From: Promethearchaeota archaeon
GTDB taxonomy: Archaea; Asgardarchaeota; Lokiarchaeia; Sigyniarchaeales; SOKP01
NCBI GenBank assembly: GCA_048940645.1
Contig: JBHLOI010000027.1
Location: 1-48,182, forward strand
Direction: 5' to 3'
DNA length: 48,182 nt
In this document: positions 3,277-18,802 of the stretch, one piece after another
How the letters are laid out: each line of letters starts with the position of its first letter
Position numbering within the stretch: the stretch's first letter is position 1
Made by a program: the position numbers and the translations under genes
The notes under the pieces: generated by a model
Databases searched by the model: none
What the model was told of the DNA's origin: nothing
The model's input: only the letters and a program-made list of their open reading frames with translations

Positions 3277-3282
3277 AGGTGA
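3277..3282 (+). promoter_or_regulatory. Shine-Dalgarno site of pfk (AGGTGA)
   Basis: AGGTGA matches the archaeal anti-SD and lies 6 nt upstream of the ATA at 3289. Confidence 0.7.
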
Positions 3283-3288
3283 TTTTAT

Positions 3289-4495
3289 ATAGCTATTAAA
3301 AAGATTGGAATTTTAACGGGCGGCGGAGTCATGTTCAAGATTTTCCTTAACTGTCGTATACTGCCCTGGGTTAAATAGCGTAATTTATGGGATAATGTTA
3401 AAAGCTTATGATGCTGGGGTAGAGTGTGTAGGAATTCTTAAGGGCTGGAAAGGATTTATAGATAATGATACAATCCCTCTTAATATAGCCGAACATGATG
3501 ACTTACATACGGTAGGAGGAACAATTCTCTATACAAGTAGAACAAATCCTTTTAAAGGAATCACTTCAAAAGAAGAAAAAGCAAAAGAACTAGCAGCAAA
3601 GTTTAATGAATTAGCTATCGATGCCCTAATAGCTATCGGTGGAGTTTTAAAATAGTTTCTATTTTAAACTGAAGACGATACATTAGGGGTTGCGGATTCT
3701 TTGCACAAATTTGCCAAAGCAAAGGTTGTTGGTGTTCCAAAAACTATAGACAATGACCTTCTTGGAACACATTATACGTTTGGATTTTGGAGTGCTGTAC
3801 AGTTAGCTTCTAATACACTAGATAATCTAACAACAACTGCACATTCTCATCAAAGGGTGTTTGTAGTTGAAATAATGGGCAGAGATGCCGGCTTTCTTAC
3901 CATGTATAGTGGAATCTCTGCTGGTGCTGATATTATTTTAATCCCAGAGACTCCATTTGACTTTGAGAAAGATATTACTGATGTACTTAAAAAAAGAGCA
4001 ACTGCTGGTTATAAATATCATATTATTGCAATATCAGAAGGAGCATACCCTAACCTAAAGTCACTAGAGAGAGATTTTAAAACGATTTCTAAAGAAACTA
4101 TTGAAAAATTACCCAAAGATACATTTGGTAATCCATTATTAGCTAAATTAGGTATGTCTCAAATAATTGTTGATGAATTAAATTTACGAGAGGATTTGCA
4201 AAAAGAATTTAAAAGAAATGGAGTTGAATTTGAGTGCAGAAGCGTTGTTCTTGGTCATACTATGCGTGCTGGAACTCCTAATTCATTTGATAGAATATTA
4301 GGTCTAAGATTTGGATTAGCAGCTATGAAATTGGTATTAGAAGGCAAATTTGGGAATATGGTCTCATTACAAGGAAATCAAATTAAAGATGTACCTCTTT
4401 CTGAGGGAGTAAAAAAGAAATATATCACCGCGGAAAACGACAAAATGGAATTACGTGATTTATTAGTTAAAATAAGATACTTATCTAAACAATAG
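3289..4495 (+). CDS. pfkA: 6-phosphofructokinase (PfkA family, PPi-type signature), split by two introns; exons 3289-3328, 3360-3644, 3675-4495; 381 aa after splicing
   Basis: Joined exons read MAIKKIGILTGGGDCPGLNSVI...GGTILYTSR...ALIAIGGDDTLG...PKTIDND...VEIMGRDAG...LGHTMRAG. Exon total is 1146 nt (382 codons with stop). GGDD plus PKTIDND is the PPi-dependent signature. Confidence 0.92.
3329..3359 (+). other. Putative bulge-helix-bulge mRNA intron 1 (31 nt)
   Basis: Removal gives GGA G|AC TGC (GGGDC). Central helix GCGG(3323-26)/UCGU(3354-57), bulges AG^U and AU^A, internal intron hairpin, and exon-exon stem GGGCG/C(U)GCCC. Confidence 0.8.
3645..3674 (+). other. Putative bulge-helix-bulge mRNA intron 2 (30 nt, contains in-frame TAG)
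   Basis: Removal gives GGA G|AC GAT (GGDD). Exon stem UAUCG/CGAUA, central helix GUGG/CUGA, bulges AG^U and AG^A, perfect 10-bp intron stem 3646-55/3659-68. Confidence 0.85.
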
Positions 4496-17916: not shown

Positions 17917-18802
17917 GGGGAACCCTTAAAGTACCTATAATTTTTTTTCTTAAACGTTTAATATAATTTTCACTTAAATTTTTTGAAAGGCGTATAAATT
18001 TTATATGAGAATTCGCCTTACGAATTTTAATAACTGTTTTTGGCTGGATTTTTTTGAAAGTACGTTGACCATCTATTACAATTTTTGCATTTAATCGAGG
18101 TCTTAATAATTGTATCTCAACCTCACTAGTCATAGGTAAAACTATAGGTTTTAATCCAGATCTAGCGAAGCTATTTAGTGGAGTTATTTGCATAATTTCT
18201 AATGGAGATTTTACTATTGCTCCCCCAGCACTAAGATTATATGCGGTGGATCCTACTGATGTAGATATTATTACTCCATCTAAATAGCTCCGGTTTAAAA
18301 ACACTCCATCGATTTTTACAGATATTTGTAGAACTTTTGAGCTTTTTGATGAGACAATTAATATTTCATTCAAGGCATTATTTAGTTTGATTTCCTCAGA
18401 ATTTTTAATTAAGTATGGGGTTATTTTGGAACATTTTTCAATTATATACTCATTATTTAAAATTTTAATAAGATCATTAAAAACCGTTCTCTCATTTGAT
18501 TCATCTAAAAAACCAATCGATCCTATATTTACTCCTAATATTGGAGGAGCATTAAGCTGCGGTAAACTACTCGCTACTCTTAGAATTGTGCCATCTCCAC
18601 CACAAGATACAATGAATTTTGTATTTACCTCAGTCATTTCACTTAAATCTTTCCCACTATGTGGAAAAATTTTTGGAGCAATTCTTGTCTCTAATTGGAC
18701 AACTTCTCCTTTTTTAACAAGGTATTCAAATATCCTCTTAGTTAATTTAATGGCTCTTTCTGAATCCATTCTGCATGCTAAAGATACTGCCTTTTTCTCC
18801 AT
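17876..18802 (-). CDS. nadK: NAD+ kinase
   Basis: GGDGTIL, GFL, LNE, DGVIISTSVGSTAYNLSAGG. Confidence 0.95.
   Translation of the reverse strand: MEKKAVSLACRMDSERAIKLTKRIFEYLVKKGEVVQLETRIAPKIFPHSGKDLSEMTEVNTKFIVSCGGDGTILRVASSLPQLNAPPILGVNIGSIGFLDESNERTVFNDLIKILNNEYIIEKCSKITPYLIKNSEEIKLNNALNEILIVSSKSSKVLQISVKIDGVFLNRSYLDGVIISTSVGSTAYNLSAGGAIVKSPLEIMQITPLNSFARSGLKPIVLPMTSEVEIQLLRPRLNAKIVIDGQRTFKKIQPKTVIKIRKANSHIKFIRLSKNLSENYIKRLRKKIIGTLRVPLDDSPEEEFNSSY

Follow-up and report, generated by a model that had tools for sequence, protein, structure and literature searches.

The pfkA gene and its two inserts

The window, a stretch of 48,182 nucleotides from a Promethearchaeota (Loki-type) archaeon, carries at 3289-4495 on the + strand the gene pfkA for a PfkA-family phosphofructokinase, which is the single pfkA match in the genome. 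Excision of two short inserts gives a single open PfkA frame of 381 codons, running from an ATA at 3289 to 4495. The features of the locus are as follows.

3278-3282, + strand: putative ribosome-binding-like site GGTGA, 6 nt 5′ of the ATA start
3289-3328, + strand: exon 1, ending GGC GGA G (Gly12, Gly13 and the first base of Asp14)
3322-3328, + strand: exon side of site 1, with the stem-closing G at 3322, the central-helix strand GCGG at 3323-3326 and the bulge AG at 3327-3328
3329-3359, + strand: predicted intron 1, 31 nt, frameshifting, family A; partner strand TCGT at 3354-3357 and 3′ bulge AT^A at 3358-3360
3360-3644, + strand: exon 2, beginning with the AC of Asp14 and finishing GGT GGA G
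3634-3644, + strand: exon side of site 2, with the stem TATCG at 3634-3638, the helix strand GTGG at 3639-3642 and the bulge AG at 3643-3644
3645-3674, + strand: predicted intron 2, 30 nt, with an in-frame TAG at 3653-3655 and a 10-bp hairpin; partner strand CTGA at 3669-3672 (three pairs plus G-A) and 3′ bulge AG^A at 3673-3675
3675-4495, + strand: exon 3, containing the motifs GGDD and PKTIDND

The start appears to be ATA (window 3278-3291), in-frame ATG, GTG and TTG being absent. At site 1 GGCGGAG (3322-3328) is followed by the insert (3329-3359) and by AC from 3360; at site 2 GGTGGAG (3638-3644) is followed by the insert (3645-3674) and by AC from 3675. These coordinates agree with the initial annotation, in which inserts of 31 and 30 nt both split an Asp codon in the same phase within GGY GGA G^AC. 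Insert 1 cannot slide. A 2-nt left slide of insert 2 gives an identical product, and its G^AC register is fixed because the inserts of relatives end in AAC, AAA or AAT. A common 5′ bulge AG^U, also claimed initially, holds in the window but varies among relatives, which have T, C or A at the U position. The AACTG said to be shared near the 3′ ends is present, but it lies in different hairpin registers, and no more than 11/29 and 18/30 alleles retain it.

The PfkA motifs have been interpreted previously, with Asp127 in TIDND as the general base (PMC12203962). The presence of both GGDD and PKTIDND suggests that the pfkA product is probably a PPi-dependent enzyme. By alignment with the Geobacillus PFK the interrupted codons are those of Asp12 in the GGD loop and Asp103 in the GGDG/GGDD loop. 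To call these active-site loops is fair; however, neither split Asp is the general base, whose TIDND motif is uninterrupted. Both GGD loops are uninterrupted in a closely homologous 424-residue PFK of solved structure (PDB 44xa, 44xf and 9cir; E 9e-145).

Pairing and probable splicing of the inserts

Spliced alignment of 190 pfkA loci from genomes and metagenomes yielded 150 distinct alleles, with an insert at codon 14 in 29, at codon 109 in 30 and at both in 19. No disrupting insert was found outside these two codons among the 150 alleles, and in the 189 usable loci all 59 insert alleles measure 30-32 nt. After excision none of 40 insert-bearing genes contained a stop or any other lesion, and the codon-position divergence of insert-bearing alleles equals that of empty ones. 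In-frame inserts of 21-30 nt at codons 81-88 of distant alleles were set aside as protein loops rather than introns, as was a 527-nt gap in one allele (L089) that is a run of N and not a long insert.

The four exon bases 5′ of the bulge pair with the four intron bases 5′ of the 3′ bulge, giving the bulge-helix-bulge (BHB) arrangement of a 4-bp helix between two 3-nt bulges, with the cut after bulge base 2. At site 1 the central helix has four of four pairs in all 29 alleles. Site 2 is relaxed, with three of four pairs in 26 alleles and two of four in the other 4, and free folding of this site did not produce the exact BHB. At the synonymous exon position −5, base changes are matched in the intron partner (at site 1, C-G in 26 alleles and T-A in 3); together with the frozen paired synonymous sites, this is the mark of flanking helices kept by selection. 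The predicted cut restores the Asp codon. The genome has two genes with the EndA domain (PF01974) and one rtcB gene (PF01139).

From the clean spliced frames, the BHB pairing, the covariation and the EndA and RtcB genes we strongly infer that both inserts are spliced, and hence are BHB-type (tRNA-type) mRNA introns. In the mRNA each would fold into the BHB seen in the pairing and its conservation; the splicing endonuclease EndA would then cut each bulge behind its second base and RtcB would join the exons. That the inserts are instead left unspliced, as pseudogene lesions, assembly errors or points of ribosome bypass, is hardly credible given the recurrence of these inserts, with compensatory changes, across dozens of independent assemblies, a single pfkA match in this genome and the absence of further lesions in the 40 insert-bearing alleles.

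Junction sequence and site preference

In order to place the two junctions among other inserts, this genome was compared with approximately 2.7 Mb (70%) of a sister genome, G018, by motif-free spliced alignment in both directions, and further candidates were checked in sequence and added; a de novo BHB scan of the genome was too noisy to serve as a census. The census comprises 16 further mRNA inserts of 29-37 nt. Eleven lie in this genome, in genes named partly from motifs: rnhB, a Rag-like GTPase, rps27ae, a geranylgeranyl-reductase-like gene, purA, mevalonate kinase, dnaG, a transporter, a low-molecular-weight phosphatase and longin (two inserts). Their positions, by contig, are listed here.

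C86, 1120-1149, + strand
C52, 78280-78309, + strand
C88, 49889-49919, − strand
C72, 6691-6720, − strand
C54, 14730-14759, + strand (purA)
C114, 14316-14346, − strand
C83, 7122-7158, + strand
C90, 10892-10924, + strand
C19, 35830-35862, − strand
C7, 33832-33860, − strand
C7, 33676-33705, − strand

The other five occur in G018 and are lacking here: PAC2, an AAA ATPase, metS, an amidohydrolase and an acyl-CoA dehydrogenase (L267, L264, L269, L286). With the pfkA pair, the coding genes of this genome hold at least 13 BHB-type inserts. The C72 insert splits the GDAA motif of the geranylgeranyl-reductase-like gene and is absent in G018. For the purA insert the best pairing (GGGG/CCCT) is obtained in the register GGA G^AT, two bases to the left of the codon boundary; the cut then falls in an Asp codon, in phase 1.

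The initial annotation had proposed GGYGGAG^AC as an insertion target. The exact 9-mer is found at 0/16 of the other mRNA sites. GGAG^A occurs at one (purA, in its Asp codon; p=0.10), ^AC at two (p=0.15) and GGA before the cut at three (p=0.08), and the low-molecular-weight phosphatase and purA have in common GGAR^A. Among some 15 tRNA introns of this genome, as parsed automatically, none has the pfkA junction. The 9-mer is rare, with four other in-frame copies in approximately 2.8 Mb of long ORFs, and the pfkA match therefore exceeds naive chance; when motif and structure are taken into account, the excess over chance is not large. All four copies are empty and unable to form the stem. The two similar uninterrupted sites noted initially both exist as described:

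18593-18601, − strand: empty GGTGGAGAT in the GGDG motif of the NAD kinase gene nadK, with a stem of just 2 bp round the 7-nt loop
24402-24410, + strand: empty GGTGGAGAT in an FGGY kinase gene, with a 2-bp stem only

The homologous GGDG loop of nadK has no insert in 39 relatives, nadK and purA alleles of relatives being judged by match length and stops only. The full 9-mer is also present at site 2 in three empty pfkA alleles, which is the number that chance predicts. As a lineage-wide target GGYGGAG^AC is not supported.

A sequence-specific element might nevertheless direct insertion to the 9-mer, either a homing endonuclease acting in cis or trans, or reverse splicing followed by reverse transcription. 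The exact repeat within pfkA, the GGAR^A of purA and the phosphatase, a free-standing LAGLIDADG-domain gene in the genome and the resemblance of the lateral tracts (see below) to co-conversion would all fit. This reading is very unlikely, and is already largely refuted. Homing calls for a shared, rarely empty target, yet the 9-mer is shared with none of the 16 sites, exact targets stand empty at four in-frame positions elsewhere and in three site-2 alleles, and nadK is empty in the 39 relatives. The longer, endonuclease-bearing alleles that homing-element remnants led one to expect did not appear in the 189 usable loci, where no insert exceeds 32 nt, and neither pfkA insert was present in the viral contigs searched. 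Reverse splicing fares no better: the genome (90% complete) has no RVT_1 match, and close plus/minus pairs differ most at the flanks. The recombination tracts remove introns as well. The LAGLIDADG_3 domain belongs to a free-standing ORF of 447 codons (C83, 19632-20972, − strand) with repeats in its N-terminal region; an 846-codon ORF (C7, 34070-36607) that adjoins the two-intron longin gene, 4 kb from rtcB, has a similar N-terminus.

A softer rule accounts for most of the likeness. A Gly-Gly-Asp motif cut in phase 1 dictates six of the nine bases; the three that remain free are synonymous, namely the bulge A, the C that closes the stem by pairing with G at −7, and the helix Y. GGA, which supplies the bulge A, is used in 59/59 insert-bearing versus 117/241 empty alleles, and GAC, which supplies the stem-closing C, in 57/59 versus 45/241. 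This synonymous freezing is confined to the junction and ends at the edge of the paired zone. Across the 16 other sites and the pfkA pair, A stands at −2 in 17/18 5′ bulges and 18/18 3′ bulges, the sole exception being the GG bulge of the G018 amidohydrolase insert; registers were chosen partly by BHB pairing, which somewhat inflates this rule in what is a small census. Intron flanks have a GC content of 44% versus 31% in coding DNA, and the exon stems round a 7-nt loop are stronger than a GC-matched background (p=0.002).

On empty alleles, a profile trained on the 16 other introns ranks the pfkA sites 5 and 4 of 1102 positions, and with a flat GC-plus-A model they come 18th and 19th, within the top 2%. 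Position-specific information beyond GC-plus-A is borderline, being equalled by 5% of column permutations, and leave-one-out profiles on empty orthologs did no better than the flat model. Conservation also marks the sites: among 125 distant PfkA homologs their windows rank 11 and 25 of 382. Elsewhere the inserts split RNase HII DEAGRG, purA GDEGKG, MVK GEH, phosphatase CAGNTARS and the MetRS HIGH region, and the PAC2 and longin inserts lie outside catalytic motifs. Between the two genomes intron-site windows are 0.91 identical versus 0.85, a weak test of conservation. Hence these ranks, together with conservation, indicate a soft and general preference that points to both pfkA sites. With the profile, the chance of drawing exactly this pair among conserved positions is 1-6%, and some further cause may thus remain. 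The likeness of the junctions appears to be mostly the product of the shared Gly-Gly-Asp motif and the RNA shape needed for splicing, rather than of a special DNA target.

The inserts at site 1 fall into families, and family A aligns with B/C no better than chance (p about 0.25). Since the two are unrelated, the site 1 bond was probably colonised twice, which argues that the soft preference is real. Of the sequence-preferring insertion proposed initially, this preference survives and the fixed 9-mer does not.

The inner hairpin of site-1 family C scores 16.2 against that of site 2, compared with 7.0 ± 4.2 for pair-shuffled hairpins (p=0.025), and the likeness lies above 98.6% of 351 unrelated intron pairs (p 0.015-0.025 overall). 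This hints at a single copying event linking the two similar sites. An insert might have moved once within the gene, the 9-nt likeness serving as micro-homology that guided it, and the double colonisation of site 1 would agree with such mobility. We regard this as rather unlikely: AT-rich hairpins align readily, three comparisons were performed, and the inserts of this window itself (family A and site 2) are unrelated, with a score of 1.0. Copying between tRNA genes was found to be rare in Asgard archaea (10.64898/2026.10.13.758758), and transposition of tRNA introns via micro-homology has been proposed for Thermoproteales (Fujishima 2010, as cited in 10.64898/2026.10.13.758758). It is a speculative and rather unlikely extension that 30-nt mRNA introns are minimal non-coding mobile cassettes, carried from one Asgard lineage to another on short tracts in conserved motifs and able to jump via the 9-nt micro-homology, as between site 2 and family C; if true, the cassettes would reveal how introns can enter protein genes in the prokaryotes most closely related to eukaryotes.

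Exchange between lineages and relation to known introns

On the gene tree each site requires at least 17 state changes, versus 27 with shuffled labels. Close plus/minus pairs differ by 0.19-0.20 in their unpaired flanks versus 0.07-0.08 elsewhere in the gene, and minus/minus pairs by 0.08-0.09 versus 0.06, the pairs in both comparisons being non-independent. L002 differs by 1% from insert-bearing alleles, and over a 75-nt tract it has no intron 1 and agrees with distant empty alleles, whereas L177 and L075 have intron 1 on tracts matching distant insert-bearing alleles, in a gain-like manner. L182 and L331-L333 are 4% apart, with the differences mostly within approximately 12 nt of both junctions. 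Foreign tracts accompany gains as well as losses, and with the flank-centred differences they point to allele exchange by recombination in both directions. The purA insert is polymorphic too (9/36 genomes). Separately, L189 is mosaic relative to L030, highly divergent over the first 420 nt and nearly identical thereafter.

Several other routes were rejected. Precise loss via a spliced copy does not fit, as empty alleles lack the frozen flanks. A retro-transposed or reverse-spliced intron would leave identical flanks and require a reverse transcriptase, neither of which was seen in this 90% complete genome and its close plus/minus pairs. Distant plus alleles share no third positions beyond the paired zone, contrary to long co-conversion in one recent sweep. 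The intact database proteins nearest to insert-bearing alleles are not of spliced-copy origin; they come from DNA contigs, and their flanks are changed.

Retention alone, in which insertion would be indiscriminate and persistence limited to places where imprecise loss is lethal to the enzyme, draws on the position of both pfkA sites within top-conserved windows and on the splitting of most other hosts inside family motifs. However, losses are frequent and clean, and since they come about by swaps with empty alleles, retention is not needed as the sole force. It also leaves unexplained the GC, A and stem biases and why one phosphodiester bond received two families. In 150/150 alleles no insert interrupts PKTIDND, which is the most conserved loop and carries the general base, and neither PAC2 nor longin is split in a catalytic motif. 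We consider retention on its own improbable; of the retention initially suggested, the siting in conserved loops stands, and the frequent losses speak against the rest.

Collectively, we favour, with a probability of roughly two in three, an account in which tRNA-type introns met one soft rule twice on the same peptide, which would make the junctions alike, and are exchanged as alleles on short tracts. The rule would combine a GC-rich exon stretch that closes a stem round a 7-nt loop, an A two bases 5′ of the cut and a conserved motif; in a genome of 30% GC the Gly-Gly-Asp codons would be among the best such places in pfkA. The protein would dictate six of the nine bases, and, for as long as the intron remains, selection for splicing would hold the three that are synonymous. 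Intron-plus and intron-minus alleles would replace one another between lineages through homologous recombination on tracts of tens of bases, such as those observed, and conserved motifs may ease such short-tract recombination.

On this account the apparent 9-nt target is mostly explained and becomes an ordinary part of the finding. The pfkA pair offers a testable rule for intron location (GC-rich stem, 7-nt loop, bulge A and conserved motif), exhibits allele swap between lineages as a mode of turnover, and bears on whether insertion bias or retention shapes intron evolution. In practice, conserved genes of this single Asgard genome are interrupted by at least 13 such inserts, which gene-calling programs will annotate as pseudogenes or fragments.

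Inteins, group I introns and archaeal rRNA introns with homing endonucleases sit in conserved motifs, and their plus and minus alleles exchange together with flanking DNA. The pfkA inserts resemble them in both respects but have no ribozyme core, ORF, fixed target or sign of one-way drive. The rRNA introns with homing endonucleases are also covered in the report of the BHB intron in cbf5 pre-mRNA of Desulfurococcales and Sulfolobales, which is 16-44 nt long and was proven by cDNA (PMC2738675). The cbf5 intron and the pfkA pair are both short and BHB-type, lie in phase 1 of an Asp codon within a conserved motif, have relaxed motifs and patchy loss, and lack an endonuclease ORF (PMC2738675). They differ in that cbf5 involves one gene and one ancestral gain, whereas pfkA has two introns in a gene and at least 13 inserts in the genome, and in that splicing of cbf5 is proven by cDNA, whereas the pfkA introns are known here from DNA sequence (PMC2738675). 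Presence and absence within a genus, unrelated families at one site and two-way lateral exchange also set pfkA apart from cbf5. In our literature search, tRNA-type splicing within archaeal coding sequence was documented for cbf5 only, and mRNA introns of this sort were not reported in Asgard archaea.

The non-canonical tRNA introns of Asgard archaea resemble the pfkA pair in size class, BHB boundaries and repeated gains (10.64898/2026.10.13.758758). The hosts differ, being mRNA here and tRNA in that preprint, which makes no mention of mRNA (10.64898/2026.10.13.758758). One G018 candidate for an mRNA insert (c17-c) was dropped from our census as a tRNA-Cys T-loop intron; the tRNA-Cys gene is uninterrupted in this genome (C63) and carries this 30-nt T-loop intron in G018 (L284).
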